Part shown: positions 3,300-46,708 of the stretch, in pieces
Position numbering within the stretch: position 1 is the stretch's first letter
Layout of the letters: each line of letters opens with the position of its first letter
Origin: Candidatus Poseidoniaceae archaeon
GTDB taxonomy: Archaea > Thermoplasmatota > Poseidoniia > Poseidoniales > Poseidoniaceae
Assembly: GCA_943788655.1 (NCBI GenBank)
Contig: CALSRB010000002.1
Location: forward strand, 395,081-459,080
DNA length: 64,000 nt
Direction of reading: 5' to 3'
The notes under the pieces: model-generated
What the model was told of the DNA's origin: nothing
Seen by the model: the letters and a program-made list of their open reading frames with translations, nothing else
The model's database searches: none
Made by a program: the position numbers and the translations under genes

Positions 3300-3390
3300 G
3301 CAGGAATATCGGCCAGTTAAATCCCCCTTTCACACGGCCCGTAGGGCCGATTCACTCAAGTGGTAGTGAAGTGTGGCCTAACTTGGTCTT

Positions 3391-14092: not shown

Positions 14093-14165
14093 GAGTCTCC
14101 AAAGGATGAACAAACACCAATAGCCCACCCGTTGGTTACAAGAAGCCCGCTCGATTCGCCAAACC

Positions 14166-15536
14166 ATGGACACCACAACCGATCAACCACTCCCGGTTGT
14201 CGACGCAAGCAAGGGTGCCCTTTTCGTCCTTTTTTTGGTGACCGTCATTGATATGATTGGGTTTGGGATTGTGATTCCTTTCCTCACCTACTTGGTTGAG
14301 GATCTTACGCCTGCAAGTCAAGAAGCAAGCATCGGTATTTGGGTTGGCGTGCTGATGACTTCATACTCGGCGGCTCAATTCCTCTTTTCGCCGTTTTGGG
14401 GGTCACTCTCTGATAAAATTGGCCGACGGCCAGTGCTCCTCATAGGACTGATTGGCAACACCGTCTTCTTCACAATGTTCGGACTTGCAAACACCCTATG
14501 GCTCGCCTTAGCAGCACGCTTCCTCGCTGGTGTGTTCAATGGCAACCTTGCGGTGGCACGGGCCTACATTGGAGATGTGAGCAGCCCTCAACAATTGGCG
14601 ACACGAATGGGCCTCATTGGTGCTGCGTTTGGACTTGGTTTCACGTTTGGACCGTTCATCGGGGGCGAACTATCTGATCCTGCAAGCCGATGGGCATCGT
14701 TCGAAGGGACGATTTTTGACAGCCACCCTTACTTGCTCCCCTGTGCAGTAGCAAGCCTCCTTTCTGTGCTTTCACTTCTTGTTGCCTTTCGAAGTTTGCC
14801 GGAATCACTCCCCCCGGAACGTCGCACAAGTGGCGAGAAGAAATCGAAAGAAGGTGGCATGCTCAAGACAATGCAAAGCACAAGCGAGATGCTCCGGTCA
14901 GGTAGCACCTCTGTAGTCATCTGGGTGACCATGCTGTTCATTTTTGGATTCACCATCATGCACGCTGTGTTTATCCTGTACACTCAGATGGTACCAGCAG
15001 ACGGTGGCCTTGCTTTCTCGGAAGCCGACAATGGCCGAGTCTTTGCGCTCATTGGTGTTTCAGGCATTGTAACGCAAGGGCTGCTGATTGGGCCGCTCAC
15101 AAGAAAATTTGGAACACGACGCTTGATCCCAATGGCAATTGTGATTACAGGGATTGGGCTTGTTCTCATCCCATACAGCCAATATGAGTCGAGATGGCTG
15201 CATGTGCTCATCGTCGGTGTCCTCGTATCCGTTGGCAACGGCTTGTTCACACCATCTTCCTCCTCGTTCCTCACACGAATTGCAAAATCAGAGGGGTACG
15301 AATTGGGTGTGGTGATGGGAGCGCAAGAATCAGTAAGTGCATTTTCAAGGATCATCGGACCACTTACTGGAGGTTTTGTTTGGGTGTTGACCTACTCGAG
15401 GGATTGGCCATTTGACTACCATACTGCTTTCCACATTTGTGGCATCCTCATGGTATTTGCTGCACTGTTGTCCCTGAAACTCCCACCGCTTCCAGAGGAA
15501 CAAGAAGTCTTGGAACACACCGTAGAAGGTGAATGA
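14166..15536 (+). CDS. MFS transporter (DHA1-like, 12 TM)
   Basis: MFS signature region GxLSDKIGRRPVLL, 12 predicted TM helices. Confidence 0.8.
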   Translation: MDTTTDQPLPVVDASKGALFVLFLVTVIDMIGFGIVIPFLTYLVEDLTPASQEASIGIWVGVLMTSYSAAQFLFSPFWGSLSDKIGRRPVLLIGLIGNTVFFTMFGLANTLWLALAARFLAGVFNGNLAVARAYIGDVSSPQQLATRMGLIGAAFGLGFTFGPFIGGELSDPASRWASFEGTIFDSHPYLLPCAVASLLSVLSLLVAFRSLPESLPPERRTSGEKKSKEGGMLKTMQSTSEMLRSGSTSVVIWVTMLFIFGFTIMHAVFILYTQMVPADGGLAFSEADNGRVFALIGVSGIVTQGLLIGPLTRKFGTRRLIPMAIVITGIGLVLIPYSQYESRWLHVLIVGVLVSVGNGLFTPSSSSFLTRIAKSEGYELGVVMGAQESVSAFSRIIGPLTGGFVWVLTYSRDWPFDYHTAFHICGILMVFAALLSLKLPPLPEEQEVLEHTVEGE

Positions 15537-15576
15537 ACTGGACTATCTTCAAGAGGGGCATTCTCAACCATGACCT

Positions 15577-16998
15577 ATGCAGCACGCAACAACGGCTTGG
15601 GATTCAGGCCGTTTTAATCGAAGGGTCACAACCTTTGCACATGCAATGATCATCATCAGTTTGGCCGTTGTTTGGTTGATTCTGCTGAAGGGAGTCTTGC
15701 AACCTTTCTTCATTGCACTTGGCCTGTACTTCGTCCTTAAACCAGGTTCCGACTACCTCTCTACAAATGGATTTCCCGTGATTCTGTCCTACCTCACAAT
15801 GGTCCTTCTAACATTGCTCGTAGTGTCTTCAGCGGCCTTCTTTGCGTATCAACAAGCAGCAGATGTCCTTGAGGACGAGGCGAAGATGGATGAATACAAC
15901 ATCCTCCTCGAAGAACGCTGGCACGATTTGAAGACGGGGACGGCGTTGTCTGCAGCATTCGATGATGATAATGCCCTTAACAACACGCTTGTCGAAGATT
16001 TAGCAGAATGGGGGGTTCTTGAAAACGATGAAGAAATTTCAGATGCGGCAGTTGGCATGCTTGCAGGTGTGGGTTCAATGCTCACAACGAGCATCACAGT
16101 GATGTTTTTCCTCATTTTCATCATCTTTGAGGCTAGCTTGCTACCGGGCCGAATTGAGCGTGCTTGGCCGGGTGGAGCCAGTGAGAAAGTCCAGATTGTT
16201 CGAAGCAAGATCGAAGCCAGCGTCAACACCTACATTGTCGTGAAGACGGGTGTAGGGCTTGGAACAGCCGTTTGTGCGGGAATCATCATGCTTGTCTTTG
16301 GCATTGAATTGTGGTTCACATGGGCGTTGTTGACCTTCTTGCTGAATTATGTGCCATACATCGGTTCGTTAATCGCGACGCTACCACCGATTATCCTTGG
16401 ACTCATTCTGCTTGAACCGGCGAGCCTCGCACTCCTGATCCTGTTGCTGCTCACCAACCAACAGGTGTGGGGGCAAATAATTGAGACACGATGGGCTGGA
16501 AGAGCCCTTGACCTCTCCCCTGTCGTCTTGTTGCTTGTGACAGCAATCTCATTTGCAGGATGGGGGATTCTCGGGATGATTCTCGCCGTGCCATTTGCGG
16601 TGATCATCAAGATTGTCTTGGAGAACATCGAAGCAACACGCCCAATTTCCATCTTGCTTTCAGAACGGGCACCATCGATTGATGAAGCATGGAACGAGGC
16701 TATGAAAGATGGAAAATTATCCTCCTTCGAAACGCAGTCCCTCGGGCAATTGCAAGAAGTTCTTGGCTATTCAAACCGAGAAGTTAAACTCATTTCGGGC
16801 CGAATTGCAGTCGAACGAGTGCTCCGAAAGAACAAGATTACAGATGACCAATTGGACCTCATAGCAGGCGTGGCAGATGAACTACGCCACCACCAAGATT
16901 TAGCAGCCGAAGTGACTTCATCCCTGCATCAAGGAAAGATTCCTAAGGAAGTTCGCCCCTTGCTCAAGCAGTTCCTTACTGCAATCGAAGAAGAGTAA
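15577..16998 (+). CDS. AI-2E family (PerM/UPF0118) transporter with an approximately 120-aa cytoplasmic C-terminal extension
   Basis: LLNYVPYIGSLIATLPPIILGL and WGILGMILAVPFAVIIKIV are typical of the AI-2E family. Confidence 0.65.
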   Translation: MQHATTAWDSGRFNRRVTTFAHAMIIISLAVVWLILLKGVLQPFFIALGLYFVLKPGSDYLSTNGFPVILSYLTMVLLTLLVVSSAAFFAYQQAADVLEDEAKMDEYNILLEERWHDLKTGTALSAAFDDDNALNNTLVEDLAEWGVLENDEEISDAAVGMLAGVGSMLTTSITVMFFLIFIIFEASLLPGRIERAWPGGASEKVQIVRSKIEASVNTYIVVKTGVGLGTAVCAGIIMLVFGIELWFTWALLTFLLNYVPYIGSLIATLPPIILGLILLEPASLALLILLLLTNQQVWGQIIETRWAGRALDLSPVVLLLVTAISFAGWGILGMILAVPFAVIIKIVLENIEATRPISILLSERAPSIDEAWNEAMKDGKLSSFETQSLGQLQEVLGYSNREVKLISGRIAVERVLRKNKITDDQLDLIAGVADELRHHQDLAAEVTSSLHQGKIPKEVRPLLKQFLTAIEEE

Positions 16999-23049: not shown

Positions 23050-23125
23050 GGGCGTTTAGCTCAGTTGGAAGAGTGCTTGGTTTGCAACCAAGATGTCGTG
23101 GGTTCAAATCCCACAACGTCCACCA
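23050..23125 (+). tRNA. tRNA-Ala(UGC), CCA encoded
   Basis: Hand-folded cloverleaf: acceptor GGGCGUU/AACGUCC with the G3:U70 Ala identity pair, anticodon loop UUUGCAA, T-loop GGGUUCAAAUCCCAC. Confidence 0.9.
23107..23122 (+). repeat. attL-like direct repeat (tRNA-Ala 3' end)
   Basis: aatcccacaacgtcca, identical to 29319-29334. Confidence 0.7.
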
Positions 23126-23490: not shown

Positions 23491-24198
23491 ATGGACATAC
23501 ACATCCCGGCAGGTTATGATTCGTTAAACAGGCCACTTACTGCTTTGGAGAGTTCAACTTTACTTGGACTTTCCGAATTCACAAAGCAGAATCTACCATA
23601 TTTTTCTAAAATCAAAAAAGGGAAAATACTGATGGCTGTAGGTCTAGGCTTTTTCTTGATTGGCTTGATATATTATGCCGTTTTATTAGTTTCGTTGGTA
23701 ATTTTGGGAGGAGGTTTCTATGTCTGGAAAACAGCAAAATCGACACCAGTGGCTTTTCCGGAACTTTTTGTATTAGAACACTCCTCAACAATATACAAAG
23801 GAAAGCCACTAATCGTTTCCGGATTGGAAGAGAGTAAATCGAACTATGAAATTGACTCACTCTATGAAGAGTATCCAAAACATAACCCTACATTAGAGGA
23901 AAATGAATCACTCTTGTATGTTGAACCCGGAGACAACCCTAAGCATTCGCTTAACACCATTAACGAGTTTTACTCATTACTCTCAAGTTATCACTCGAAG
24001 TTATCGAATGTAGGGAAGTATAATTTCAGCTTAAATTTCCTTTCAAGTTCCCAAGCATCGGCTCTCGATGAATTAAACTATTCATTTGATGGCCCTGATT
24101 GGTTTTTACAGGAATATCTAATTGAATCTAAATCAAATGACCACGATTTGATTTCGGAAAATGTAGCAATTCTGGACTATTTTGGACGATATTCTTGA
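23491..24198 (+). CDS. Islet protein A: membrane protein (TM hairpin) with a S/N/Y-rich soluble C-terminal domain
   Basis: Hydrophobic 31-aa stretch MAVGLGFFLIGLIYYAVLLVSLVILGGGFYV; first gene of a tightly packed/overlapping plus-strand operon. Confidence 0.5.
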   Translation: MDIHIPAGYDSLNRPLTALESSTLLGLSEFTKQNLPYFSKIKKGKILMAVGLGFFLIGLIYYAVLLVSLVILGGGFYVWKTAKSTPVAFPELFVLEHSSTIYKGKPLIVSGLEESKSNYEIDSLYEEYPKHNPTLEENESLLYVEPGDNPKHSLNTINEFYSLLSSYHSKLSNVGKYNFSLNFLSSSQASALDELNYSFDGPDWFLQEYLIESKSNDHDLISENVAILDYFGRYS

Positions 24199-25474
24199 GT
24201 CGAACATAGAGGTTCTTACTAGATTCCTTAAACACTTTGAGGATGAATATGCGGGGTACGAAAACTGGCTCAAGGAACTCGAACACATCGCAAATCAAAG
24301 TTCAGAAGGCGTTCTTGAAAGCATGGTTTTGACATACTCGCATATCAATGATGCATCAGGTGAGGCATCAGCACTTTTGCTAGAATCTGTAGATCATAAA
24401 ATCCAAGAAAATACTAGGAAATTAGAATTCCAAGCAAAACAAAAAATGGACGAATTGGAAGCAAAAATGAGTGATATGCAGGACAAAATCATGGAGCGTA
24501 AAGATGAACTAAAGTCTGCAATCTCATCACAGAATCAAATTGTAAACAACCTGGAGAAAGAAGCAATTAGCGCCCAATCTGATCTAACTGGGACATCATC
24601 TATGATTTCAATGGAATTGCCTTATGCAACCGTCGGCGGGGGTGGCGGAAACATTGGTCCAAACGGAGGAAGAGTTAGTGGAATTTCATCCGGGATTGGA
24701 TATCATACAGTTCACCTTCCAAACCCTGAATTCTCTGCTAAGCAACAGGCACATAGAATCATTTCGACCTTGGGAAGGATTGAACAGGAAAAACTGAAAA
24801 CTTTGAAGGACCAACTTACCTCGACTGATAATTTGGTTGAGCAGCGCCGAGAAGCGATTCTTTCAGAACAAGAAAGCCGTAAAAAAGAGTATCAAGAGAG
24901 AATGGAAGATGAACGTAAGCAGCTATCCAAACATTCCCTTGCTGTCAAGGCTCTGCATGAAGATATTTTAGAAAATCCTATTCAGATTGACGTCGATGAT
25001 TTGACGAGACTGGTTAATCGATCTTGGCTACAGCCGGCTAAAATTGTTTATGGACATCTGAATAGTATCGAATCAAAATTTCAAGAATGCACTGAGATAT
25101 TTCGCTGGTTTAAGGAAAGATCTGACTTGATTTCATCCAGTATTTTAGCAGGCTCTCCGAATCAACTTGGGACTAATGGTCGAATTTTCTCCCACTGGTT
25201 GGTAAGAGACCACGAAGTCTTAGATGTGATTAAAATTAAATCTGAGATCTCACTAGATAAACCAATAAATGTAGACTCTGTACCTTCCAAAAAGAGTCAA
25301 ATTCTTTCTAACCCAAATACCAACCCAAATTTCCCTTCAATGAGAAGGAAAATGAACAGCCAATCCTTAGCGGTTTTAATTCAACATCTAGCTCATCAAG
25401 GCAGTATAGATTCAAAACTGGCGAAGAAGTTATCGGATCTTTGTAATAAAAATGTAAACCATATCATGAGGTGA
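24182..25474 (+). CDS. Islet protein B: 430-aa coiled-coil protein with a central poly-Gly loop
   Basis: Heptad-rich E/K/Q segments flank GGGGGNIGPNGGRVSGISSGIGY. Overlaps gene A by 17 nt and gene C by 4 nt (translational coupling). Confidence 0.5.
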   Translation: MDDILESNIEVLTRFLKHFEDEYAGYENWLKELEHIANQSSEGVLESMVLTYSHINDASGEASALLLESVDHKIQENTRKLEFQAKQKMDELEAKMSDMQDKIMERKDELKSAISSQNQIVNNLEKEAISAQSDLTGTSSMISMELPYATVGGGGGNIGPNGGRVSGISSGIGYHTVHLPNPEFSAKQQAHRIISTLGRIEQEKLKTLKDQLTSTDNLVEQRREAILSEQESRKKEYQERMEDERKQLSKHSLAVKALHEDILENPIQIDVDDLTRLVNRSWLQPAKIVYGHLNSIESKFQECTEIFRWFKERSDLISSSILAGSPNQLGTNGRIFSHWLVRDHEVLDVIKIKSEISLDKPINVDSVPSKKSQILSNPNTNPNFPSMRRKMNSQSLAVLIQHLAHQGSIDSKLAKKLSDLCNKNVNHIMR

Positions 25475-26286
25475 TTTTAATGTCAGATGAATCAAGATCA
25501 GATGCAGCAATATTGGCCTCATTGAGTATGGAGGAGAGCCGAGGTTTAGTTACTCTCAGAGCGGCTCAAGAACGTCGTGAAGGAATTCTTCCAGCAGAAT
25601 CGAATCAAGAGAATCGTAACGTACGTATTGAATCATGTTGTTTTGTTGATGGTCATATTTTCGGTAAAGATGTTGAATTGATGGATTGTGACATTCGTAC
25701 TCTTTCAACCCGAGCGAGCGAAAACCTCCCTGGTACGCAAATAAATGGTGGAATCAATGCCTTCGGTGATGTGAAAATTGGAGTTGGTTGTGTCGTTGGT
25801 TCAGGAGATGGAGGGGGTGTTCTTGCTGGTGGAAATGTAAACATTAGTTCAGCTATTCCAATCGTTGAAAACGGACCATCTCGAACAATTATCATTGGCA
25901 GTGTCAGTGGCGAGCACATAGTGATTGGAGATGGGGCAATCATTTTAGGGGCAGTTATCGGTCAGAAATCAGTACAGATTGGTAGCGGTGTTACAATTCG
26001 AGATCATGTATTCACACCTGCTTTGGATGCTGGTGATGGAAATTTATTCGGAGGCTTAATTGTAGGTGACTCAGTGAGAATGGGAAAACTAAACACAATA
26101 GCATCAGGTAGAATAATGCTCCCTACTGATGATAATACTGTCAGTATCGAATCTCCAATTCGTTCGCCATATCCTGGGTGTAATAATTGCCAATACGCTG
26201 ATGAAGTTGGGAGGTTCAGACAACGTGCAAGACTACGGCCGTCGTTTATCTTGCCACCTTTTCAAATCTGTGGAATTAGAAGATGA
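25471..26286 (+). CDS. Islet protein C: beta-helix repeat protein, bactofilin-like
   Basis: Approximately 120-aa run of short G/V/I-rich turns (GDVKIGVGCVVGSGDGGGVLAGGNVNISSA...IIIGSVSGEHIVIGDGAIILGAVIGQKSVQIGSGVTI) typical of bactofilin/left-handed beta-helix repeats; the C-terminal 55 aa are of uncertain reality. Confidence 0.4.
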   Translation: MILMSDESRSDAAILASLSMEESRGLVTLRAAQERREGILPAESNQENRNVRIESCCFVDGHIFGKDVELMDCDIRTLSTRASENLPGTQINGGINAFGDVKIGVGCVVGSGDGGGVLAGGNVNISSAIPIVENGPSRTIIIGSVSGEHIVIGDGAIILGAVIGQKSVQIGSGVTIRDHVFTPALDAGDGNLFGGLIVGDSVRMGKLNTIASGRIMLPTDDNTVSIESPIRSPYPGCNNCQYADEVGRFRQRARLRPSFILPPFQICGIRR

Positions 26287-26503
26287 ATCTCTTAAGATTA
26301 CTGAAGGGATGTGCACTGAATGGACTCCGTTTGATTTGGATTCCAAAGATGCCCAGTTTACGATAACAGATAATCTAGTCACAGATGTCCCATGGAATTT
26401 GAAATGTGTTACTAATTGGCCGACTGATTCTTTGAACCTAGAGTATGATAGAGACCAAATTGCAATTTGGGAAATGACTGCTGAGTCGCTAGGGGGTTTG
26501 TAG
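26129..26503 (+). CDS. Islet small ORF D (start uncertain; possibly 26309 MCTEW...)
   Basis: In the same frame as, and immediately upstream of, gene E. It overlaps the gene C tail, so the true start is likely internal. Confidence 0.2.
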   Translation: MIILSVSNLQFVRHILGVIIANTLMKLGGSDNVQDYGRRLSCHLFKSVELEDESLKITEGMCTEWTPFDLDSKDAQFTITDNLVTDVPWNLKCVTNWPTDSLNLEYDRDQIAIWEMTAESLGGL

Positions 26504-27112
26504 ATGCCTGAATGCTGTGCGATTCACTTTACTGGATGGTACTGTCCAAAGTGTGGTTTACCCATTTCGTTTGCAGATCACGGTGGAAGTACACCGATTT
26601 CAATTGGAAATATTTCTACTAAAAACGTCACAATTAATCAACAACTTGTTCAAGGTGATTTAATTCAAGCAGGCGGCATAAAGTCAACTGGACGAGGCAA
26701 TGAAGTTCCAGAGTCGTTCGCTTTACCACTTCCGCCTCCTCCGTTTGAGGAAGATGATTTGCCCTTGCCACCCCCTCCTGCGGAAGATGATTTGCCCTTG
26801 CCACCCCCTCCTGCGGAAGATGATTTGCCCTTGCCACCCCCTCCTGCGGAAAATGATTTACCCCTGCCCCCTCTACCTGCGGAAGATGATTTGCCCTTGC
26901 CACCCCCTCCTGCGATTGAAGAACTGCCTTCACCCCCTTCTTTAGTAGAAGATCCAGAGTCTACAGTGAAGAATGTCGATAATTCGGAGGAGATTTGGCC
27001 GCCAACGGATGCAGAAATTATCACTGACGAATTAGGCGTTGAATGGTTTGAGGAAAATGGAAAGTGGTATTTCAAGAACCCTGAAGATAACTGGGAACTC
27101 TTCCAAACTTGA
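26504..27112 (+). CDS. Islet protein E: N-terminal zinc ribbon, five EDDLPLPPPPA polyproline repeats, C-terminal WW-like motif (EWFEENGKWYFKNPEDNWELF)
   Basis: CC-x2-H-x6-C-x2-C at residues 4-17; 5 x 33-bp DNA repeats; the C-terminal motif is shared with chromosomal giant surface-protein tails (see findings). Confidence 0.6.
   Translation: MPECCAIHFTGWYCPKCGLPISFADHGGSTPISIGNISTKNVTINQQLVQGDLIQAGGIKSTGRGNEVPESFALPLPPPPFEEDDLPLPPPPAEDDLPLPPPPAEDDLPLPPPPAENDLPLPPLPAEDDLPLPPPPAIEELPSPPSLVEDPESTVKNVDNSEEIWPPTDAEIITDELGVEWFEENGKWYFKNPEDNWELFQT
26751..26915 (+). repeat. 5 x 33-bp tandem repeat (gaagatgatttgcccttgccaccccctcctgcg) encoding EDDLPLPPPPA; the fourth copy diverged (ENDLPLPPLPA)
   Basis: Direct inspection; coding, not CRISPR (no spacers; repeats are contiguous and in-frame). 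Confidence 0.9.
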
Positions 27113-27149
27113 AAGCTGGTTTGGTTACTTTCTAGCGGGATTTCCACCA

Positions 27150-28619
27150 TCAATTATACGCTTTACATTGGTCACAATACCATCTTCGATATTGAGAAAT
27201 GTACCGGGATACGCCACCGCATAACTTGCACGATTGCTTTTCTGGGGGCGATGGTTGTCCTGGATTATTTTTCGTTGCATCCCCAGAAATCAGGTCACCT
27301 TGAACAAACGTCATGTCACCGTTAGCCTCCCCTGCCCTGTCTAAGAATTGTTGGGCAGTCTGTTGCTTAAGCAGTTCTTTTTGTTGCTGCGTTTCTTGTT
27401 CAATATTTGTTCTCTGGGTAATAGCCTGCTGTTCGATGAGAGTCTGAAGCATTCCCGCAATATCTGATGAACCTTGCTTTCCAGAACTTATAGCCTTCAT
27501 TGCCTGCTGCATGAGTTCGGCCTGATTGCTTGCATCTATCTGGGTTCGGTCAAGTTGCTGTGTTTTCATCGTTCTTGATTTATCCATTTGAGATGACTGT
27601 AGTTCATCCCGCATTTGTTGTTGTTGAATCAGGAATTCTCGTTCCTGTCCAGTTGTATCTCCACTTTTGAAGCGACGTTCAAGTTCCTTATCGGCAACTT
27701 CTTGTTCCATCAGCATTTTTTGTCTTTTCGTATTTAGATCGTGGGTATGAGTACGAACTCTTTGCTCAAATTGAGATTCAAATTCGAGTTGCTTCATTTT
27801 GATTTCAGAGAGTTGATGTTGAATCGCAACGTCATCCTCTCCTTTGGCAATGACAAGTTGTGACTCAGCCTCGAGTTCCAGTTCTTTGTGAATCAGTTGG
27901 TATTTATCCTCGAGAGCAAAAATCATTGCATCTTGCTCAATTTGTTCAACACCCCTTTCTAAATTCAACTGACCCCGCATTTGTTGCACTTTGTCGTGTG
28001 CATTTGGACTAAAAACGATTTGATTTTGACGGAATGTCAACCCAAATTCTGCATGCGTTCTTCTCATGTTTGTGAGTAATTTATCCCGAATGTTCATTTG
28101 GATTTCTTCTGATGTACGAATCTCAGATAAATTATGTTTGCCAATTTCATCTTGCAGCACTTTGTTTCCGACTTCATCAATTAACATGGAAGCAAGTGTA
28201 GATCGTGTTAGATACGCTGAATTCTCATTGTCCAGAGGGTTTAGTGGTACATTTGCGAATAGGTTCACTAATCTTGGAGCATCTGTTAATTGAATTTGCA
28301 TTTCCAAGGTTACCGCACCCTTCACTTCCATAGCGTCGAGTGATCTGCAGTCGAATTCATAATGAAGTTTAAACGGGGTGTTGATTGTAAAAATGAACTT
28401 CTCTTCGGGTTTTCTACCAAAAAAGAGTTTTTTACCAATCCCACCAACAATTTTACTCAGCCTCTGTTCCGTGTAGGTGTCTACGATCTTACCGTCTTGC
28501 AATATCGTCAGTGATTCTGTTGATTCCAACACAATATCTCTGGAACGGAAAGACGAAATTGATGCTGTTTGAATTAAGCTTGCGATTGCCTCAGGGTTTG
28601 TTCTCCACTTGTATGTCAT
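27150..28619 (-). CDS. Islet protein F: SPFH/band-7-like N-domain + long Q/E-rich coiled coil + C-terminal zinc ribbon
   Basis: HNLSEIRTSEEIQMNIRDKLLTNMRRTHAEFGLTFRQNQIV resembles the SPFH core; C-terminal CKLCGGVSRYISQYRRWYCDQCKAY; no TM. Confidence 0.45.
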   Translation of the reverse strand: MTYKWRTNPEAIASLIQTASISSFRSRDIVLESTESLTILQDGKIVDTYTEQRLSKIVGGIGKKLFFGRKPEEKFIFTINTPFKLHYEFDCRSLDAMEVKGAVTLEMQIQLTDAPRLVNLFANVPLNPLDNENSAYLTRSTLASMLIDEVGNKVLQDEIGKHNLSEIRTSEEIQMNIRDKLLTNMRRTHAEFGLTFRQNQIVFSPNAHDKVQQMRGQLNLERGVEQIEQDAMIFALEDKYQLIHKELELEAESQLVIAKGEDDVAIQHQLSEIKMKQLEFESQFEQRVRTHTHDLNTKRQKMLMEQEVADKELERRFKSGDTTGQEREFLIQQQQMRDELQSSQMDKSRTMKTQQLDRTQIDASNQAELMQQAMKAISSGKQGSSDIAGMLQTLIEQQAITQRTNIEQETQQQKELLKQQTAQQFLDRAGEANGDMTFVQGDLISGDATKNNPGQPSPPEKQSCKLCGGVSRYISQYRRWYCDQCKAYN

Positions 28620-28623
28620 TAAA

Positions 28624-29241
28624 TCACCTTAAATTAAAATAAATCGTTACTCCAATTGCGAGTAAGGATATTAATAACGATGCAATCTGGACCCACTTAA
28701 TTGACTTCTTCGATTTCTGACCTTGCACCACATCAAGCGGAACGCCATTGATGATTGCCCTTCTTGCGTTGTATTTGCTTCTGAATTGAGTAATCTGAGA
28801 GATGATTGCCTCAATTCCTGAGTAAGATTCTCGATCAGAAGAGTGCGATGTTTCAGAAATGGAGACCTGAATTTCTTTTACAATTTCAATTATATCCAAA
28901 TCTATCTGAACCAAATTCTCAATCGTTTTTTTATTGATTGATGATAATATGTCAATTTTCTTTGCCATAGTCCCTGTCGGAGATGTCCGCAACTCCGATT
29001 CAATCACATCAATTTCTGTCAAGAGTGTATCAAAATCAGCTTTCTTCTGCTTGTCATTTGAAGTAACGCGTAAAGACTCAATTGTTTTTCGGCAATTTGT
29101 CCACTCCAGACGGATATATTCTCGTAATTCCTTATCATCATCATTTGATGGTTTTTCAGAATATCCCATGTAAGTTGGAATAATTTTGGAAAGTTGCAAA
29201 AGCGCACTGGCGTTTGCTGCGGAGGGGATTGGTGGTTGCAC
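28624..29241 (-). CDS. Islet protein G: tail-anchored coiled-coil protein (single C-terminal TM)
   Basis: C-terminal WVQIASLLISLLAIGVTIYF; helical N-region; 4 nt downstream of the gene F stop codon (co-oriented pair). Confidence 0.45.
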   Translation of the reverse strand: MQPPIPSAANASALLQLSKIIPTYMGYSEKPSNDDDKELREYIRLEWTNCRKTIESLRVTSNDKQKKADFDTLLTEIDVIESELRTSPTGTMAKKIDILSSINKKTIENLVQIDLDIIEIVKEIQVSISETSHSSDRESYSGIEAIISQITQFRSKYNARRAIINGVPLDVVQGQKSKKSIKWVQIASLLISLLAIGVTIYFNLR

Positions 29242-29318: not shown

Positions 29319-29334
29319 AATCCCACAACGTCCA
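29319..29334 (+). repeat. attR-like direct repeat (copy of tRNA-Ala 3' end)
   Basis: aatcccacaacgtcca; GC content rises immediately downstream. Confidence 0.7.
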
Positions 29335-29491
29335 TTTCCCTGCTAAAACGGTGGACCCCACGTACGTTATTGATTCTCATAAAGCCCACTTCCATCAGAC
29401 AGAATCTAGATGAGGGCGTTGATGTTAGGCGCATGCACTGGACATCGAAACTGCAGCAAACTTAGGCGAGGCACTCAGCGGTCTTGCCATC

Positions 29492-29983
29492 ATGGCCACG
29501 CTGCTGTTCGGTCTTCGTCAAGTAATGGAAGTCAATCGCAATCGCCGATTTGAAATCTCCCAAACGATTGCCACATCATTGGAAAACCCCCTCGTTCAAC
29601 GAGGATTTGCCACCTTTGGGAGCGTCATCACAAAAGATTCCACGCTCGAAGATTTGATGGGCCTTACGAGGGAGCAAAAAGATGCAACCAATGCGGTCAT
29701 CGTTCTCATGTCGAACCATGCCTTGATGACGTTTCACAGGAATCTTTCATTTGACATCGTTTTTTCCTTCTACAAAGGATACCTCTCACTCATCGGACCT
29801 AGCATGCGACGGATGATGGAGATGATTGAATTTGGTTATTCCATGCACGAAGGGAGCAGTGTAACCAAAGAAGAGGGTATGGGCACGTTCCATTGGGTGT
29901 TTTGGTTACTTGACAAACTCGAGGCACATGAGAATTCATCGCAACTAAAACCCCACATCAACCAAACCGATTGGCAACCATGA
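29492..29983 (+). CDS. Hypothetical protein (possible N-terminal membrane anchor if the start is upstream at a non-ATG codon)
   Basis: 163-aa ORF outside the islet, host-like GC. Confidence 0.3.
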   Translation: MATLLFGLRQVMEVNRNRRFEISQTIATSLENPLVQRGFATFGSVITKDSTLEDLMGLTREQKDATNAVIVLMSNHALMTFHRNLSFDIVFSFYKGYLSLIGPSMRRMMEMIEFGYSMHEGSSVTKEEGMGTFHWVFWLLDKLEAHENSSQLKPHINQTDWQP

Positions 29984-30395
29984 ACGCATGACTTATTCAA
30001 GAGATCGAACTCTTTCCAAGCATAGCACCAAACGACTATGAGGCGTTGGTTTGGATTGCTTGGGGATTGGTACATTCCTTTTCTCAATACTGCTCCTCAT
30101 CGACACGAATGTACTCAAATCCGTTTCAGGGAATAAACGGTGCGACTGCGAAGAACAGAAGCAAAAGAAACGGCGAGAGCAACCTTGAACATCGATTCAA
30201 AGATACGAACGAATCCTGCTAAATCTGTAAAAGGAAGACTGAGAGGCATATCGGGGCCAGATGAAAATTCAAAATATCTATGTGTTCTTTCCGTTTCCCG
30301 ACACCTTGTGACCCCAGAACATACAAGAGAATATATTACAAGACCACTTGACCGAAGTCATACGACCTTAAACCGTCGTTATTCGGGGAATCATT

Positions 30396-32027
30396 ATGGT
30401 CAAATCCAATATTGAATCTTTGGTCGAAACAATCACAGAGGAGGTTAAGTCGAAATTCACGAGAACCATTGGATTGGTCGGTGTGATTATCATCTCACTC
30501 TCCGCCATGCTTCCTGGAATCTTTGTGACCCCAACTTTTGCAGCAGAGATCATGGGGCCTGGAATTTGGCTTGCCTATTTGGTCGCAGCTTCTGTGGTCC
30601 TTCCCGGTGCTCTGTCCAAGTCTGAGCTATCATCGGGAATGCCGTCGAGTGGAGGGTCGTATGTCTACTTAGAGCGCACGTATGGCCCGCTAATCGGGAC
30701 AATCAGCGGACTGGGTTTGTGGGCATCTTTCCTCCTTAAATCGGCCTTTTCCTTGATTGGCTTTTCTGCATACTTCATCGTTGTTACGACCTACTTCGAC
30801 ATAAAGATGGAATTGATGACACTCTCAATGAGCGCACTGGTGCTAATCGTTGTTGTGAACCTACTTGGCGTGTCGAAAGTCAAAGCAGTTCAAGCACCGA
30901 TTGTGTTCATGACCGTGGCTCTGCTTACGGTCATTTGCATTGCCTCATTCTTCACTGACGGCTTCGATGCCAGCATCCCCATCGATGGAGCGATGAATGC
31001 GAATGGGTGGGCACTTGCTGAAGCAGCAGCCTTTGTCTTCGTTGCCTATGCCGGCGTTACCAAGGTGGCTGCGATCGGTGGGGAAGTGAAAAATCCTGAG
31101 AAAAATTTGCCAGCTGGAATATTGCTTTCGTTGCTGATTGCAACAGTGCTCTACTCTGTAATTTCGTTCTTGATGATGGCAGCCATTCCAGGCGATGGAT
31201 GGTGGATCAGCCAAGATGGCAAGGTTGTGGAGAACCCAATTTGGGTCTTCGCTGAAACCGTTGCAGGATCGAAATTCGGTGTCGTTGCCGCTGCCCTTTC
31301 TGTTCTAACGATGATTTCGATGGCGCTTGCCGGTATTCTCGCTTCCTCAAGATTCCTGTTTGCAATGGCTCGTGACAACCTTCTTCCGCAAGCACTCGAG
31401 GAAGTGAATATAAAATTCGAGACCCCTCATTGGCCCATTCTCTTGACTGGAATCGCCATGGCGTTGGCAATTTTCTTTGTGCCTCTCAAGGACGTTGTCA
31501 AACTCGCTTCAGGTTTCAAAATCATGATTTTCATGATGATCAACTCATGCGTTATTATCCTCCGGCAAACGAGCAAAGAACATGATTGGAACCCATCCTA
31601 CAACAGTCCAATGTACCCCTACATCCAGTTGTGGGGAATCGTGGCGGGCGCAGTTCTCATCGCATTCATCGGCAACAAGGCCTTCATCGGTGCAGGTGCT
31701 GCAGTTGTTGCAGGAGCAGCCACATACTTCCTCTACGGCAAAAAGCACGCAGTTCTACAAACGACGCCAGTCGCTTCCTTCCGCAAGCAATTCCAATCGC
31801 CTTCTCCGACCGAGCACGAACGCCGAATAACTGCGTTCCATGCTGCTGACATGGGAGGTAAGAACCATTTGACCGTACGAGAATTCCAACGTGCTCTGAA
31901 AGCGCTCGGCCTCAGTTACACCTCCGATGAATCCCGTGCGATTTTCCATGCCGCAGATGCCGATTCGAACGGTGTAATTGACATTGATGAATTCTTCGAG
32001 TTCATTGAAACCACCAGCGAAGAATAG
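30396..32027 (+). CDS. APC-family amino acid permease fused to a C-terminal EF-hand pair
   Basis: 12 TM helices with APC-like composition; C-terminal DADSNGVIDIDEFFEF canonical EF-hand loop plus an upstream degenerate one. Confidence 0.7.
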   Translation: MVKSNIESLVETITEEVKSKFTRTIGLVGVIIISLSAMLPGIFVTPTFAAEIMGPGIWLAYLVAASVVLPGALSKSELSSGMPSSGGSYVYLERTYGPLIGTISGLGLWASFLLKSAFSLIGFSAYFIVVTTYFDIKMELMTLSMSALVLIVVVNLLGVSKVKAVQAPIVFMTVALLTVICIASFFTDGFDASIPIDGAMNANGWALAEAAAFVFVAYAGVTKVAAIGGEVKNPEKNLPAGILLSLLIATVLYSVISFLMMAAIPGDGWWISQDGKVVENPIWVFAETVAGSKFGVVAAALSVLTMISMALAGILASSRFLFAMARDNLLPQALEEVNIKFETPHWPILLTGIAMALAIFFVPLKDVVKLASGFKIMIFMMINSCVIILRQTSKEHDWNPSYNSPMYPYIQLWGIVAGAVLIAFIGNKAFIGAGAAVVAGAATYFLYGKKHAVLQTTPVASFRKQFQSPSPTEHERRITAFHAADMGGKNHLTVREFQRALKALGLSYTSDESRAIFHAADADSNGVIDIDEFFEFIETTSEE

Positions 32028-35025: not shown

Positions 35026-38000
35026 TCATTCAGTCCATTCGGACCATTCGGACTCATCCGGTTGGCGGTAGTACCAGGTGCCATTTTCATCTTCGGCCCA
35101 CTCAGTACCATCATCGTCCACGCGATGATCTGCCATCCACGATGTGTCCTCTTCGGGCTCCGTTTCAGGTTGCACCTCAGGCACAACCTTTGGCGCAGGC
35201 CCACTCGGCCCAGGTGCAGGACCAGTTGGGCCTGCAGCGCTCGGTGCGGGGCCACTCGGACCCTTTGCTGAACGTGACGGTGCTTCGTCTTCATAATCGT
35301 CTTCGTCATCATAGTCATCGTAGTCTGTGTCACCACCGCGAAGGGCGACAACCAACAGGCCTACAACAACGAGAGCGATGATGGCAACAAGCACTGCGCC
35401 AACATAATACAGCGGTCCGCCAGCCTTGAAGAAACCTCCAACGTTCCCTGTGACTTCAAATTCAATGGATTCAGAGACTTTACCAGATGTTACGGTCACG
35501 GTTTGTGAGCCGCTGTCAAGGGTCACGACCTTCCAGACACCTTGGCCTTGGGCCAAGACTTCTGCTCGACCGGTCGAATCCACGTTTGTGCTCGCAGGAA
35601 CCGGTATTGGGTTGTCATAGGCATCGAAGGCCGAGACAGTCACTGTGAATGTTCCCAATTGGTCAACAGTGGTTTCAGAAAGCACCACGAGAATGGAACT
35701 GACCGTTCGCTGAGCGGCCACTGAGAGTTCAAGACTGCCTGTGGCTTGACCCGTGCTGAACTCAAGTGAATGTGTGCCTGCAGTTCGAGCGAAGTAGGCA
35801 TAGCTTCCTTCTTCTGTGCCGGCCGACATGTCGTCAACACCGCTGTTGTTCTCCGTCCACTCAACGGTCTGTGGGAAGGTGTTTCCGTCAGCATCTGTAC
35901 CTGTGATCTGAATCGAAATTTCCTTGCCAGCATCTTGAGCCAATGTGTCAACTGTTGAGGCCACACTGACAGCAACACCGTGCAGGACAGTCACTGTAAC
36001 TTCGTCACTGATGTTGTACCCTGCGTTGCTGATTGCATACCCTGCAATGGTGTAGTTTCCTACGCTGGTGGCCTGCCAACGCATGTTAGCAGCAACAAGG
36101 CTCGATGTGATGTCTGTTGTTTCTTGAGTTTCAGCGTTGATGAGCACCCACGTCAACAGACTTGCGTCGATTGCGTTGGTGTCCAGATCTGCAAGGTTTG
36201 CAGAGAAATCGATGTATTCATCGGCAGTCAGCGAGAATGCCTCGCCAGATGTGCCGTCTGAAGCGATGGCGGACACCGTTGTGGAGATGAGGTCACCTTG
36301 GCTGACTTCGACAAACAAGCTGACTTCATGGACCATTGAACCGTCGTCATACACTGCGAAAATCGTGTAAGCAGTCGTCGATGATTCGAACGGTTGGAAG
36401 GTCACTTCGTCGTTGCCGATGTCCGCCCCTTCAAGGATGGACTGGTCGCTCCATGTTGCGTGAACAAGCGTCCAGTTGGCATCAATCGACCAGCGGTTGC
36501 CCTTTTGGTCGGTTGCCTTCACATTCACGTCGAGTGAATCATCAGCGGTCAGTTGGAATGTATCGCCGACAGAATCGACGTTCTCAACAACCAACACGAG
36601 CGTAACGATTGCACCTTGCTCAACAGTGATTGAGACCTGGGTCGTTTTGTCCTCATACTTGGCTTCGAGTATTTTCTGACCTCGAGAAATTGGGTCCCAT
36701 ATCGCAGGTCCTCCAGGAGTCAAGATACCGTCTGAAGTCTTGGTCCAGTTCTGACTTGGCAAGAACACAGGTAGGCGATTGCCGCGCACGTCAATGCGAG
36801 TGGTGTTGATGTAAATTCGGTCATCTGCCGTGATTGCGGTTGCGGAAAGATCGAGTTCGAGGCTGTCCATTGCGCCGTGCCCGACGGTGATCAACAACTG
36901 GCCTGCAGCACCGCTGGTTGAGGTAAGGTTCAACCACCAAACGCCAACATGGTCAGGGAAGTATTCGCTGTTCTCTGTGCTGTAGTTTCCATTTCCGACC
37001 GTCCATGTGAGCGAACCTGCTTCGGTCACGTCTTGTATTTCATTCCCAAATTGGTCATACAATGTGTGCGTAATCGAACACCAAACACCAGCTGGTACGG
37101 TGCCGGAGCACCCTTCGAGGGTGAATGATGACGCAACACCGGTCATAACCAATACTTGGACGGTGACCGACTGGCCATTCCAGCGCACGTCAATGCTTTG
37201 CAGCCCAGTCGCATAAGGAAGGAACAAGTTCGGCTGAGCGAGATCCATGCTACCGTTCGTTGGGGTGAACGAGATGGCCTGGTTGGGAACTGCATTGCCA
37301 AACTGATCGACCACTTGCGCGTTGATTGTCAGCGTGTCGTCGGCGGTGATTTCGGTGGCAGATCCGGTTGCAATCAATGTTGTTGGCGCACCAGGCGTAA
37401 CCGTGACAATCTCGATTGAGCAAACCAATCCAAAGCAAGCAGAAACAGTGTGCTGTCCTGATGCATATGGGGTGAAAACACCGGTTGTGGAAATGCTACC
37501 ATTTGATGCTGACCAGATAATTGGAGCACTAACTGGCATCGAGAGGTGGTCATAGGCAACATAGCTGAAGGAAATTGGATTATCCGCTGACGTCGTAGGT
37601 GCCGTAGGCGTGATGTCAACACTGTTGACGTCGGTATGGTTCAACAGAATCATTGGCCGGTTTGCCGCTTGCCCAACTAAGGATTCGCTGGCGATGAAAT
37701 TCGCCATCATATCGCCACGGTTAGGTGTTCCAATAATGATCCAAGCGTTGTCATTGTCAATGAGCATACCTTGCGCACCAATGTCAAACCAAATCCAGCG
37801 GTTGTCGCTGAGGTCGGTTTCCACGAACGAAGAAACAGGTGTTGCTTCGTAATCAACACCGGCTTGCATGCCACTTGCACCCCACGAAACGCCTGTGGAT
37901 GCATTGTTCCACGTGGAGCCAGATTGACTCCACTGAGCGTTGGTGATCCGGTGAACATCAAAGGTCATCGCGTTGGCTCCACCGGCAGTAGTCCATGAAT

Positions 38001-41000
38001 CCACATAGAGTCCAAGGCTTGCAGAATGGATGCTAGCATGAGCAGGCAACGGCACTTGTCCATTGTTGAGTGCAAAGGTCATGTACGCCCTCTGACCGCT
38101 GAATTGTCCAAAGTAGGTGCCAACTTCAATGATGTCGGCGTCACCGAAGTTTTCGTCTGCATCCGCTTCGCTGAGGTGAGTTTCGCGAATGTTGGTATGG
38201 CCGAATTGAGTCACTTCATTTCCGGTTTGGAAGGTGTAACTGAAGGTAAGATCGCCATTGTCGACATGGTCAGGGTTGCCAATGGCAAAGGACCAGCGAG
38301 AAGAGGAAGGTCCCGGTATCGACTGATTGACACCTTGAACCCACCATTGGAACACTTCACCAGTGTCCAGCGTACCGGGGAATCTGAAGGTCGTTCCAAT
38401 GAAAGCGTTCATTGATTCCCATGAGCGGTACTTGTAAACTCCAGATTGGTTGGCAATGGTGACAATATAGCCGGTTGCACCAGTTGATTGTGCCCAAGAG
38501 AGAATTGGTGTCCCGTCCGGCTGGAGCACTGCACCGCTGGTGTTGTACAACACTTCACCATCTGATGGGTAGGTGAGCGTCGGTTGCGATGGCGGCGTGA
38601 TGCCATCGACGTTATCGATGTACTCAACCACCAAACGAGGTCGGAGGGTTTCGTTCACGTACTCTGAGGAGTAGAACTGATGGTTCGTGTAAGGCGTACC
38701 AACAACTTCGAGCATGATGGTCATGGTCATGTTGTTGCTTGCTACATTGCTTTGTGCTAAACTCGTGAGGTCCCATTCAAGCCATCCGCTTGATGGATTG
38801 AGAGTGAGCGTCGAACGTGTGATTTCGGTGGTCGAACATGATGGCGTGTTGTTCCATGTCACTGTTGATTGAGAGAATTGAGAGCAAGCGTAAGCAGACA
38901 CCGTTGTCGCAGAGGTTCCCACGACGTTGTATCGGTACAAGTTAAGCAGCATCGAAGTCGGTGTCATGGCTGCTGGCCATGGCATGGTGCTGAGATCGAA
39001 TTCGATCAAAATACTGCTTTGTCCCGACCCAGAACTCGAGGTGCCAAGGTTGAGCGTTTGTGACGAGCCCATGTTCGAAGAGACAGTGGACGAAATTTCT
39101 GCATCTGGGACAGTTGGCATTAATCCGGTGTCTTCGAAAATCGAGCCACGGTAGAGACTGATGGATTGGTTGCCGTCACCATCGTCATAACCTTGGTTCT
39201 CAGGGATTCTAAACTTCTGAACTGCAGACCATTGACCGATTCTCCCATCTTGATCTGCACGAACGCGCCAGTGGTTCCAGAAATCGCCCTTCGTGAGGTT
39301 CGTATCCGTCATAGTGAGGTTGGTTGGATCCCAAGTTGTGTCTGGCCAAACGCCATCTGCGGCTGAGCCAGAGTCCCAGCATTCCAAATCTTGGACCATT
39401 CTCGGCTCGCTTGCGCCGCAGAGCAACCATTGAGTTTCGTTGGTTTGTGAAGAGGTCCAATTTGCATGGACTTCATCGGCGCCACTTGGTCTGGTGGCAG
39501 AGAGGTTCCATAGGGTCGCTCCATCTGCAGGCAGCATGTTGTATGGTGCAGAGGGAACCCATGCTGTGGTCGTATCATAGGTGAAGGAAAGAAGCGGTCG
39601 ATCGGTTCGAACTGTGTTTTCACTGCTTGCGATGTAGTACACGCCGTCAACGGTGCCATCGATTTCTTCGGCTTGAACCAGAATGTCCAAACTTTCCTGC
39701 CCACGAAGAATAGCATGTTGAAGCATGGCGGTCACGTTGACTTCGTAGACGCTCGTAGTGTTCATCCAGAACCCAGCGGTTTCTGGAATCTGTGAATCTG
39801 CGGAGTGGTATGCGCCTGTTCCAATCCATGAGGTCGTGTTGTTTCCAGGGTGAGCCCATGAAGACGCTTCGTCCCAGGAAGAAATCATTTCTGAAACTGT
39901 GACAAACACCTCTCCGTTTCCATTGACAGCTGTAAGCTGCAACGACGCATTCTCAATCTCATACACTGATGGCAATGGTACGGTACTGAAATCAATCGAA
40001 AGGAGGGTCGAGGAGCGCAAGGTGCTGCTCTGGGGGCTCCGTCCAACCGAGAGGTAGGCGTTCGCGCCGTTGTTTGCTTGGGAGTTGCCTTGGTCGATTG
40101 AAGTATCAATCGTCACTGATGGATAATTGAGGTCTGCGACCATGTTTCCATCCTGAACGGAGAGCCAGGCATGCGTTGAATCGACTTCACCAGAAACCAC
40201 ATCAGGAATGTAGAACACAGTGGAGACGCTTTGTGGGCCAATCATACCCGAGTCGATTGGTTGCACAGTCCAACGAACCGTTTGCACGTCTATATCAGAT
40301 GGTGGCGTGAATTCCAAAGCGTTGAGATCGAACGCCGAGGATGTGACACGGGAGTCGTACACGGTGCGTCCAGCCATGTCATCGTCTGCATCTGCAAACA
40401 GGATGACGCGCCAGGCAGCTGGTGCGTTCACGCTGCTTGGAAGCGTCCAAGACAGGACGGGGGCGTAATCTGGAAGGACTGCGTGGCTGGTTGCGTCCCA
40501 CATGATTGAGCCGTTGCTCGGGCCAGCGTTTGTAGCAGCAGTGCTTGGCACAGCGGCGGTTCCGTTGGTCCATGTGAGGTTTAACCATGGCCGGTTCGAA
40601 GACAGTCCTTCAGAGGTGGTGAAGGTGATGAGGTTCGCGCCGTTCGACCAAGAGGTGATTTCGTTGGAGGCATACACCATGAGCGAGAGGGAGGAAGCAC
40701 CGGAGTCAAGCGCTGCTTGCACGGCCTCAGTGACATCCCAAGACATCCAATCTGCACTCACAGACATTTGCAAATCCACGTATTGGCCCACGTCAACACC
40801 AATGTCCCGACCTGCTAATGCTGACCAGTTGTTTGTGCCGTCGTAGGTCACATCGTTTGCTGCACCCGTCCAATTTTGCAAGACTGGGCGCACGGCAAGT
40901 GGTTCACCGGTTGGGGAACTGAACTCTGAATAGAGGTTGAGGGCTGCATCCGTAACTCGAGCGTTGGCTGGCTGTGGCACTGCGTTGAGCGGAATGCGGA

Positions 41001-44232: not shown

Positions 44233-44361
44233 ATACTGTCTTTTCGCTTGAATGTCATTCAAACAACCATCTAGTTCAATTCCATTTGACTGAATTCCGC
44301 CCAAAAATTTCCGTTGTTTGAAGGGCCAATGTTGAAGGGCGCTCGCCGTCAAGAGGGACCC

Positions 44362-46578: not shown

Positions 46579-46708
46579 GCCGGGGTGGCGTAGTTGGTGG
46601 CGCGTCGGACTCATAGGGCAGCCTTCAAGGCATTCGTATGACGTGCAAACCCCTTGTGGTGTCTGAGACATCCGAAGGTCGCGGGTTCAAGCCCCGCTCC
46701 CGGCACCA
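46579..46708 (+). tRNA. tRNA-Met (or Ile2) with anticodon CAU, containing an approximately 54-nt intron at the canonical 37/38 position; CCA encoded
   Basis: Exon 1 GCCGGGGUGGCGUAGUUGGUGGCGCGUCGGACUCAUA; exon 2 (A)UCCGAAGGUCGCGGGUUCAAGCCCCGCUCCCGGCACCA; acceptor and anticodon stems pair perfectly once 46616-46669 is removed. Confidence 0.8.

Follow-up and report, generated by a model that had tools for sequence, protein, structure and literature searches.

A 64,000-nucleotide stretch of the genome of a Candidatus Poseidoniaceae archaeon (assembly GCA_943788655.1, contig CALSRB010000002.1, forward-strand positions 395,081 to 459,080; hereafter the window) encodes a small protein, E, in which an acidic proline-rich repeat array lies between a cysteine-rich N-terminal domain and a tryptophan-rich C-terminal module, the W-module. 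We propose, with a probability of about 0.5, that protein E serves as the adaptor arm, on the cytoplasmic side, of a membrane complex that has an SPFH scaffold and is encoded by a mobile cassette of five genes (g1, g2, E, F and G; Table 1). The N-domain, comprising a putative metal knuckle and a conserved β segment, would dock E onto the assembly of g1, g2 and the SPFH protein F at the membrane, and the acidic polyproline-II array would form an extended arm of variable length displaying repeated L-PPPP docking motifs. The terminal W-module would couple the complex to a partner that is also engaged by the tails of surface proteins. On this view E would be a subunit for output or coupling that can be exchanged, taking the form of a binding arm in the window and of a kinase in a sister cassette.

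The open reading frame (ORF) of protein E and its repeat array were found, exact to the base, where the original prediction had placed them. Three alternative ORFs overlie the gene (26700..26945 on the forward strand, 26634..26933 and 26665..27153 on the reverse strand), solely because the repeat unit contains no stop codons in those frames. Comparison of the first 72 codons with those of three relatives revealed 31-37 nucleotide differences, 26-35 of them at codon position 3, and only 2-4 amino acid differences, corresponding to a ratio of nonsynonymous to synonymous substitution rates (dN/dS) of 0.007-0.04. The low ratio and the excess of third-position differences identify frame E as the coding frame, as had been argued from its domains, and the two ends of the protein are conserved in over 40 homologues. 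Protein E is under strong purifying selection. The competing frame at 26700..26945, which reads as MICPCHPLLRK repeats, was rejected as coding on the same dN/dS values. Peptide sequences in frame E include NVTINQQLVQGDLIQAGGIK and WYFKNPEDNWELFQT.

A search of 5.8 billion proteins recovered 44 relatives of protein E ranging from 152 to 238 residues; the family is narrow, with 21 proteins found by profile search among 1.84 billion representatives. All of the named relatives come from Candidatus Poseidoniales or Poseidoniaceae, which belong to the Marine Group II (MGII) archaea. An exact look-up found no identical protein on record, and protein E has no Pfam, PHROG, PADLOC or NCBIfam match. The two conserved ends, retained in all of the more than 40 relatives, have the consensus MPECCSIHFTGWYCPKCGLPISF...HGGSxPxSIGxISTKNVTINQQLxQGD at the head and GVEWFEENGKWFYKNPExxWELF at the tail. 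In what follows P-numbers denote database homologues of protein E and L-numbers denote fetched loci or contigs. Three of the homologues (P0036, P0037 and P0039) show frame shifts within or beside the C-rich repeat region, which may be due to sequencing error or slippage; in P0039 the repeats continue in a shifted frame rich in Arg, Lys, Cys and Leu that resembles the MICPCHPLLRK frame of the window.

Tandem Repeats Finder delimits the array at 26749..26914 (score 288, period 33, 5.0 copies, 91% matches). Read in codon register, GAAGATGATTTGCCCTTGCCACCCCCTCCTGCG encodes EDDLPLPPPPA and occurs as an exact copy at 26750-26782, 26783-26815, 26816-26848 and 26882-26914, while the unit at 26849-26881 has seven mismatches and encodes ENDLPLPPLPA; these are the four exact copies and one diverged copy first described. 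A degenerate unit borders the array at each end, SFALPLPPPPF (26714-26746) before it and IEELPSPPSLV (26915-26947) after it, so that protein E possesses seven proline cores. Six proline runs of at least three residues are present, five of these being PPPP (26723..26911). Such runs stall ribosomes and require aIF5A, a member of the EF-P/eIF5A family; if they do so here, the synthesis of protein E should be unusually dependent on this factor.

The units of the family follow the pattern [acidic]3-4-L-P-(L)-PPPP and are encoded by tandem DNA repeats subject to rapid gain and loss of copies. The [acidic]-L-PPPP motif predates each individual array: of 83 distinct units from seven clades, with periods of 9, 11 and 13 residues, 68 have Leu immediately before the prolines, with acidic residues ahead of it. 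Recent expansion or concerted evolution had been read from the near identity of the units, and rapid turnover is evident from the comparison of the four identical units in the window with the near-identical (L003, L004), block-duplicated (several units at a time in L005 and L106) or diverged units of relatives. In L001, a pilon-polished contig of 272 kb, the units are at most 88% identical pairwise and all encode EED-x-LPLPPPP; because they differ at synonymous sites and specify the same peptide, selection appears to hold the peptide while the DNA turns over.

Copy number varies between near-identical relatives, as had been expected of such repeats, from 3 to 10 proline cores in proteins of 158-271 residues. 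Where the flanks are almost the same, the difference is one of entire units or of blocks of them: P0034, L103, L108 and L107 contain 3, 6, 8 and 9 cores, respectively; P0030, P0021 and P0005 contain 3, 5 and 9; and the lengths of P0032, P0019, L104, P0012 and L106 span 183-271 residues. Short-read assemblies can collapse identical 33-bp units, and part of this spread may be an assembly artefact. The closest relatives, P0001 and L092, are missing units exactly where those of the window are identical (one unit in L092 against three in the window), and the exact number of five is for these reasons open to doubt. The arrays of L107 and L108 contain unique marker units, from which we conclude that long arrays are real. 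This middle part of protein E is predicted to be disordered and has no confident AlphaFold2 fold.

The head had been described as a zinc ribbon, a description that stands in part. Residues C4, C5, C14, C17 and H26 are invariant, and the resemblance to known ribbons is slight: the W-x-C-P-x-C-G knuckle gives weak matches to rubredoxin and zinc-finger knuckles in the PDB sequence profile search, Zn_ribbon_NUD is matched at an E-value of 0.004 in 2 of 12 members, and the first "knuckle" is CC rather than the CxxC of the usual CxxC...CxxC arrangement. AlphaFold2 gives no confident fold for this region, with a predicted local distance difference test score (pLDDT) of 40-55.

The W-module is modelled with much higher confidence (pLDDT 88-89 for residues 165-200), its strands lying at 180-184, 187-191 and 197-199 and each bearing conserved aromatic residues. 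As in WW domains, the AlphaFold2 model is a three-stranded antiparallel sheet of about 35 residues, a topology that is generic. Even at E ≤ 10, neither protein E, its homologue nor any of 11 C-terminal modules taken in isolation matched Pfam WW (PF00397); when the W-module profile was aligned by hhalign with eight WW sequences, the probability was 2.8%, with only 17 columns aligned; and no WW domain is among the top 50 Foldseek hits to the model. The spacing from W181 to W197 is 16 residues, after which comes E-L-F without a proline, whereas the WW signature has its tryptophans 20-22 apart and Pro at +3. Assignment to the WW domains was rejected on the Pfam and hhalign results and on the differing Trp spacing and proline. 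The divergent members P0049, P0054 and P0047 display a WW-like spacing (W-x9/10-WFY-x6/7-W-x3-P), P0049 and P0054 being nearer to the WW pattern with 20 residues from W to W and then W-x3-P. We treat the W-module as a new small module that, on its model, is WW-like in size and topology only.

The best sub-threshold match of the W-module is to the choline/cell-wall-binding repeat PF01473 (E-value 0.022; 15.5 bits, gathering score 20.5), with which it shares the motif W-x-x-x-G-K-W-Y-Y-x-N. It differs from PF01473 in being a single hairpin-plus-strand rather than a repeat array, in its apparent cytoplasmic rather than cell-surface location, and in scoring below the gathering threshold. PDB sequence profile searches with the W-module and the N-domain returned only weak matches, to choline-binding proteins (3hia, E-value 0.25, for the W-module) and to the rubredoxin and zinc-finger knuckles mentioned above.

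That the C-terminal motif of protein E recurs in the window was confirmed by a profile search of 1261 window ORF segments, which hit the reverse-strand ORF at 35026..44475 (E-value 3e-7); a strict regular expression run over the window had missed this second copy. The ORF is intact over 9.4 kb and encodes a giant, putative surface protein of 3149 residues with five CBM96 domains, a disaggregatase repeat and Big_1. Its C-terminal part consists, in order, of a transmembrane (TM) helix, the acidic stretch DYDDYDDEDDYEDE, Pro-rich repeats of the GPSGPAP type, and the terminal sequence ...DDDGTEWAEDENGTWYYRQPDESEWSEWTE before the stop codon. In L005 a protein of 1054 residues (13021..16185) has a DxDxDG-repeat ectodomain, a TM helix and a 130-residue tail that ends in a W-module. 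A word-indexed search with the W-module profile retrieved only fragments of the three families already found. From these architectures the W-module appears to be a cytoplasmic tail-end tag common to large MGII surface proteins and protein E.

The gene of protein E occupies third place in a set of five, g1 → g2 → E → ← F ← G, and is convergent with F and G. This order is kept in all of the more than 30 fetched loci, down to 23-48% identity of g1, g2 and F, and in every locus the stop codon of g2 abuts the ATG of E (26503/26504 in the window). The β-helix-like character ascribed to g2 comes from weak hexapeptide/LbH matches. When the model of F was compared with the PDB by Foldseek, the hits were prohibitin, stomatin, HflK/C, erlin, flotillin, QmcA and vault, with E-values down to 1e-7 and a probability of 1.0; all 34 hits at E ≤ 0.001 are SPFH-family or vault proteins. 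The 13 hits at E ≤ 0.001 in BFVD are mostly annotated as Band 7/SPFH. F has no Pfam Band_7 or Band_7_1 match at E ≤ 5, and only its zinc ribbon was matched in the PDB sequence profile search. On its model, F would be an SPFH-fold protein with no membrane anchor, followed by a coiled coil, a linker and a zinc ribbon. A search for polyproline-binding folds had been suggested for the neighbouring proteins designated B, C and F in the original prediction; no such fold was found, F having the SPFH fold and B and C being fragments of frameshifted genes. The C-terminal Trp module of E itself is the sole candidate polyproline reader, and it fails the WW tests.

The same head occurs with other arms. 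In a sister cassette (L090, 2971..3960; L091, 2707..3696) an E head, 61% identical over 56 residues, is fused to a Ser/Thr kinase that replaces the polyproline arm (P0052), with the same g1-g2 pair upstream, and in P0055-57 the N-domain carries an acidic tail only. The head is thus constant and the arm interchangeable. The gene that follows the kinase fusion encodes a JAMM-like HxHPxxxxxPSxxD motif.

In the window both g1 and g2 are split by an insertion of one nucleotide relative to L007, near 24180 in g1 (ORFs 23491..24198, 235 residues, and 24182..25474, 430 residues) and near 26206 in g2 (ORFs 25471..26286, 271 residues, and 26129..26503, 124 residues). Most of the other loci examined have intact copies of both, L007 among them (g2 at 2416-3438). 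As these insertions occur while the nearby 9.4-kb ORF is intact, the cassette may be decaying in this genome. In L001 the g1 copy has a 5′-truncation near the position at which g1 is split in the window.

The cassette lies in an islet bounded by a tRNA-Ala gene and a second copy of the 3′-end of that gene. The 16-nt core AATCCCACAACGTCCA has only two matches in the window at up to two mismatches, and two matches were seen in 0 of 100 shuffles; homology to the cassettes of other genomes stops at the ends of the islet. In L095 the cassette is flanked by a repeat of about 50 nt from the 3′-end of tRNA-Glu (90-95% identity; 6296..6344 and 13136..13185, 6840 bp apart). A 33-nt repeat of the element's own leader is present at both ends in L096. 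The GC content of the cassette is 0.40-0.43 in every genome, compared with 0.39-0.53 in the flanks, and the flanking genes differ among L001, L003, L005, L006, L007 and L095. The related locus L008 has purA and tRNA-Ala followed by unrelated sequence, with no cassette. Judged by these comparisons, the cassette appears to move between Poseidoniales genomes as a small, low-GC islet at tRNA genes, in which case the empty attB site would be tRNA-Ala followed by TTTCCCTGC.

No integrase, recombinase or replication protein was detected when the five islet proteins were compared with Pfam, NCBIfam, PHROGs and PADLOC. IMG/VR contains no relative of protein E, and with no significant PHROG hits either, the reading of the islet as a provirus is not supported. 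In L088, a contig of 6029 bp and thus about the size of the islet, the genes are in a cyclic permutation (F← G← g1→ g2→ E→); no terminal overlap was found that would indicate circularity, so any episomal form is hypothetical. The low GC content extends about 1 kb past the right repeat (29335..30395), a segment that includes an ORF of 163 residues belonging to no family (29492..29983) and that may be what is left of a different element at this tRNA site.

Table 1. Features of the islet, of protein E and of the second W-module in the window
Feature	Coordinates	Strand	Description
tRNA-Ala(TGC)	23050..23125	+	3′ end is the left direct-repeat copy; ARAGORN, Rfam 71.7 bits
attL-like core AATCCCACAACGTCCA	23107..23122	+	T-arm to discriminator base of tRNA-Ala
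Cassette gene 1 (g1)	23491..25474	+	Two TM helices, globular part, long coiled coil; ~664 aa (660-666 in relatives)
Cassette gene 2 (g2)	25481..26503	+	Putatively β-helix-like, Cys-rich C-terminal part; 340 aa in relatives
Protein E gene	26504..27112	+	ATG start, 202 aa, TGA stop; from ORF list, homologues, dN/dS
E N-domain, aa 1-66	26504..26701	+	CC...CPxCG...H putative metal-binding knuckle, then HGGSxPxSIGxISTKNVTINQQLxQGDxIxAGG; family-defining
Acidic polyproline array, seven units	26714..26947	+	Five 33-bp units (26750-26914) between two degenerate ones
E C-terminal W-module, aa 169-201	27008..27106	+	Three-stranded Trp-rich β-meander EWFEE / KWYFK / WEL; AlphaFold2, profile A3
Cassette gene F	27150..28619	-	489 aa; predicted SPFH-fold domain without TM, long coiled coil, low-complexity linker PGQPSPP, CxxC-x14-CxxC zinc ribbon
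Cassette gene G	28624..29241	-	205 aa; coiled coil, C-terminal TM anchor WVQIASLLISLLAIGVTIYF
attR-like core	29319..29334	+	Exact 16-nt copy of tRNA-Ala 3′ end, 6212 bp from left copy
Second W-module	35044..35133	-	Last 30 residues of the 3149-aa protein, after TM helix and acidic Pro-rich cytoplasmic tail

Several of our observations weigh against protein E being an adaptor arm. All of the docking steps are drawn from gene order, architecture and conservation. The SPFH call rests on one AlphaFold2 model built from nine sequences (mean pLDDT 66, about 80 in the SPFH part), none of the five cassette proteins has a significant match in Pfam, PADLOC, PHROGs or NCBIfam, and neither the N-domain nor the repeat region of E is given a confident fold by AlphaFold2. 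The frameshifts in g1 and g2 mean that the complex may be defective in this genome. The copy number varies about three-fold among close relatives, which speaks against any need for an exact length and would suit a linker under loose constraint just as well, and the giant protein has a different Pro-rich linker (GPxGPAP) before its W-module that looks like a mere spacer. The last two points favour the view that the array is nothing but a stiff, acidic polyproline-II linker of the kind found in TonB, ZipA and FtsZ, with no reader and with near-neutral drift in copy number; variation from 3 to 10 copies without loss of the gene, and an array in which AlphaFold2 sees no structure, are likewise what a spacer would show. 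A mere spacer, however, should tolerate far more drift than is seen in the Leu and the acidic flank, which are kept across clades, periods and synonymous divergence, and we consider it unlikely to be the whole explanation. That conservation of the motif favours a reader of L-PPPP. The L-PPPP units (e.g. EDDLPLPPPPAEDD) could be bound by W-modules, E clustering both itself and the surface-protein tails, possibly under an SPFH cage, in a prokaryotic analogue of the scaffolds built from proline motifs and WW or EVH1 domains. All members of the E family with a W-module also carry a polyproline region, the module is three-stranded with conserved aromatics and has the WW-like spacing in P0049, P0054 and P0047, and it is present on the tails of surface proteins. 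Against such a network, the WW tests gave nothing in Pfam, hhalign or Foldseek and the nearest match was the sub-threshold one to PF01473; moreover, P0044, P0048 and P0050 have polyproline but no W-module, and the 1054-residue protein of L005 has a W-module but no polyproline. We regard the network as quite unlikely. A broader form of the idea is that MGII archaea possess a cytoplasmic proline-motif/Trp-module system of their own, in which the E array would be a multivalent platform read by the W-modules of E and of surface-protein tails and would tie adhesins to a mobile SPFH scaffold, the repeat number setting a strain's valency and the kinase cassette being the signalling version; this is speculative and decidedly doubtful.

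A role in defence, an effector aimed at eukaryotes and an artefact are all less likely. The mobility, low GC content, tRNA linkage and variable contexts of the islet would suit an anti-virus or inter-element system in which the repeat tract of E is the diversifying or phase-variable part; GmrSD adjoins the cassette in L006, the kinase variant of L090 has the JAMM-like neighbour, and the frameshifted variants P0036, P0037 and P0039 start in or beside the C-rich repeats. Those variants may, however, be sequencing errors, no nuclease, NTPase or other usual effector is encoded, and PADLOC gave no significant match (the best being ZorA at an E-value of 0.0085 and LeoC at 0.004, both on coiled coils), which makes a conflict cassette improbable. 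The motif of E also resembles the [FLWY]PPPP ligands of EVH1 domains, which have acidic flanks and are exemplified by Listeria ActA, and one might imagine that E is delivered to protists or algae where its LPPPP repeats hijack EVH1, profilin or WW proteins. Such mimicry is hardly credible, given that E has neither a signal peptide nor a TM segment, that its putative N-terminal Cys-rich metal site is typical of cytoplasmic proteins, that it belongs to an operon of cytoplasmic and membrane scaffold proteins, and that the W-module is located on the cytoplasmic side of TM-anchored proteins. Finally, the ORF of E might not be coding, a different frame might be the one that is read, or an assembly error might account for the five copies: short-read assemblers have difficulty with identical 33-bp units, P0001 and L092, the nearest relatives, have fewer, and two frameshifts are found nearby. 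The dN/dS of frame E, the intact 9.4-kb ORF, the array in L001, and the 6-10-unit arrays with unique marker units in the independent assemblies L107, L108 and L106 leave this very unlikely, and confine the doubt to the exact copy number of five.

Among the closest described parallels is YdjI/SamI of B. subtilis, an SPFH protein without a TM segment that has a stretch of low complexity and a C-terminal zinc finger, is recruited by membrane proteins, and controls the membrane-stress module PspA-YdjGHI (SamGHI), in which YdjG begins with a CPNC motif (PMC8581546; bioRxiv 10.64898/2026.02.06.704340). F appears to have the same architecture, and both are encoded alongside membrane proteins. Unlike that system, no sequence-level link between F and YdjI/SamI was found and no PspA/ESCRT-III gene was recognised; the cassette is archaeal and mobile, g1, g2, E and G have no detectable counterpart in PspA-YdjGHI, and the polyproline arm and W-module of E have no equivalent in the described work on YdjI/SamI. 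The SPFH cages (HflK/C, prohibitin, stomatin, flotillin, erlin and QmcA-YbbJ), which supplied the top Foldseek matches of F (E-values of 1e-7 to 1e-5), have an SPFH domain followed by long helices and build oligomeric membrane cages. F differs from these in having no TM or hairpin anchor, a terminal zinc ribbon and 10-16% identity, and no NfeD or FtsH partner was seen.

Proline-motif systems of eukaryotes include the acidic FPPPP repeats of the ActA type and formin FH1. Polyproline is also read by a Heimdallarchaeal profilin (PMC8410842). Protein E is like the WW, EVH1 and profilin systems in combining tandem acidic φ-PPPP motifs in a disordered arm with an aromatic, three-stranded mini-domain of WW size, and is unlike them in that its W-module fails the WW tests, that no link to profilin, EVH1 or actin was found, and that its host is an MGII euryarchaeon and not an Asgard archaeon. 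The Borg elements of Methanoperedens are reported to contain perfect in-frame tandem repeats that create disordered regions (PMC9879509). The E array is comparable in being archaeal, on a mobile element, near-perfect and in-frame with partial-repeat flanks, fast-evolving and disordered; in contrast, it is conserved in an old gene family with apparent selection on the motif across clades rather than being a recent de novo insertion, and its islet of about 6 kb is integrated at a tRNA gene, compared with the giant linear Borg element.

The CIME-type elements of streptococci are cis-mobilisable, lack an integrase and are integrated at tRNA genes. The islet resembles these in its direct repeats of the tRNA 3′-end, the absence of a recognisable integrase among its proteins and its variable genomic contexts; unlike them it comes from an archaeon, and a helper element was not identified. 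A literature search covering Poseidoniales islands, archaeal WW/polyproline systems and MGII proline-rich repeats turned up nothing on the protein E family and no account from MGII of repeats such as these, which to the knowledge of the original prediction had not been reported in archaea at all; the Heimdallarchaeal profilin and the Borg repeats are archaeal precedents. Tandem proline-rich repeats, SPFH scaffolds and islets linked to tRNA genes each belong to known kinds of feature; what is new is their combination, together with the W-module and an arm that can be exchanged.

Elsewhere in the window, Rfam finds a tRNA spanning 127 nt on the forward strand (46579..46705; 52.6 bits) that ARAGORN does not call and that is probably an intron-containing archaeal tRNA, which fits the archaeal origin of the sequence. 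At 30396..32027 (forward strand) an amino-acid permease with a C-terminal EF-hand pair (Pfam AA_permease_2 and EF-hand_7) looks unusual for an archaeon. The second tandem-repeat region of the window (3993..4158, forward strand; periods 6, 18 and 45) consists of GGAACT-type units and is located inside an ORF (3391..4191) that overlaps another (3296..3754) by about 360 nt.

In the surface ocean Poseidoniales rank with the most abundant archaea; none is in culture, and their cell biology is almost entirely obscure. The locus offers a testable module, in which a mobile SPFH scaffold would carry an interchangeable output arm, either polyproline plus W-module or a kinase. The Trp-rich tail module would link this arm to giant surface proteins, and the strain-variable tract would tune the length or the valency of the arm. 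The 33-bp array is a candidate strain marker and a warning for short-read assemblies of Poseidoniales genomes. If it is true that the W-module reads L-PPPP, proline-motif scaffolding would exist in archaea far from Asgard and eukaryotes, independently of WW, SH3 and EVH1.

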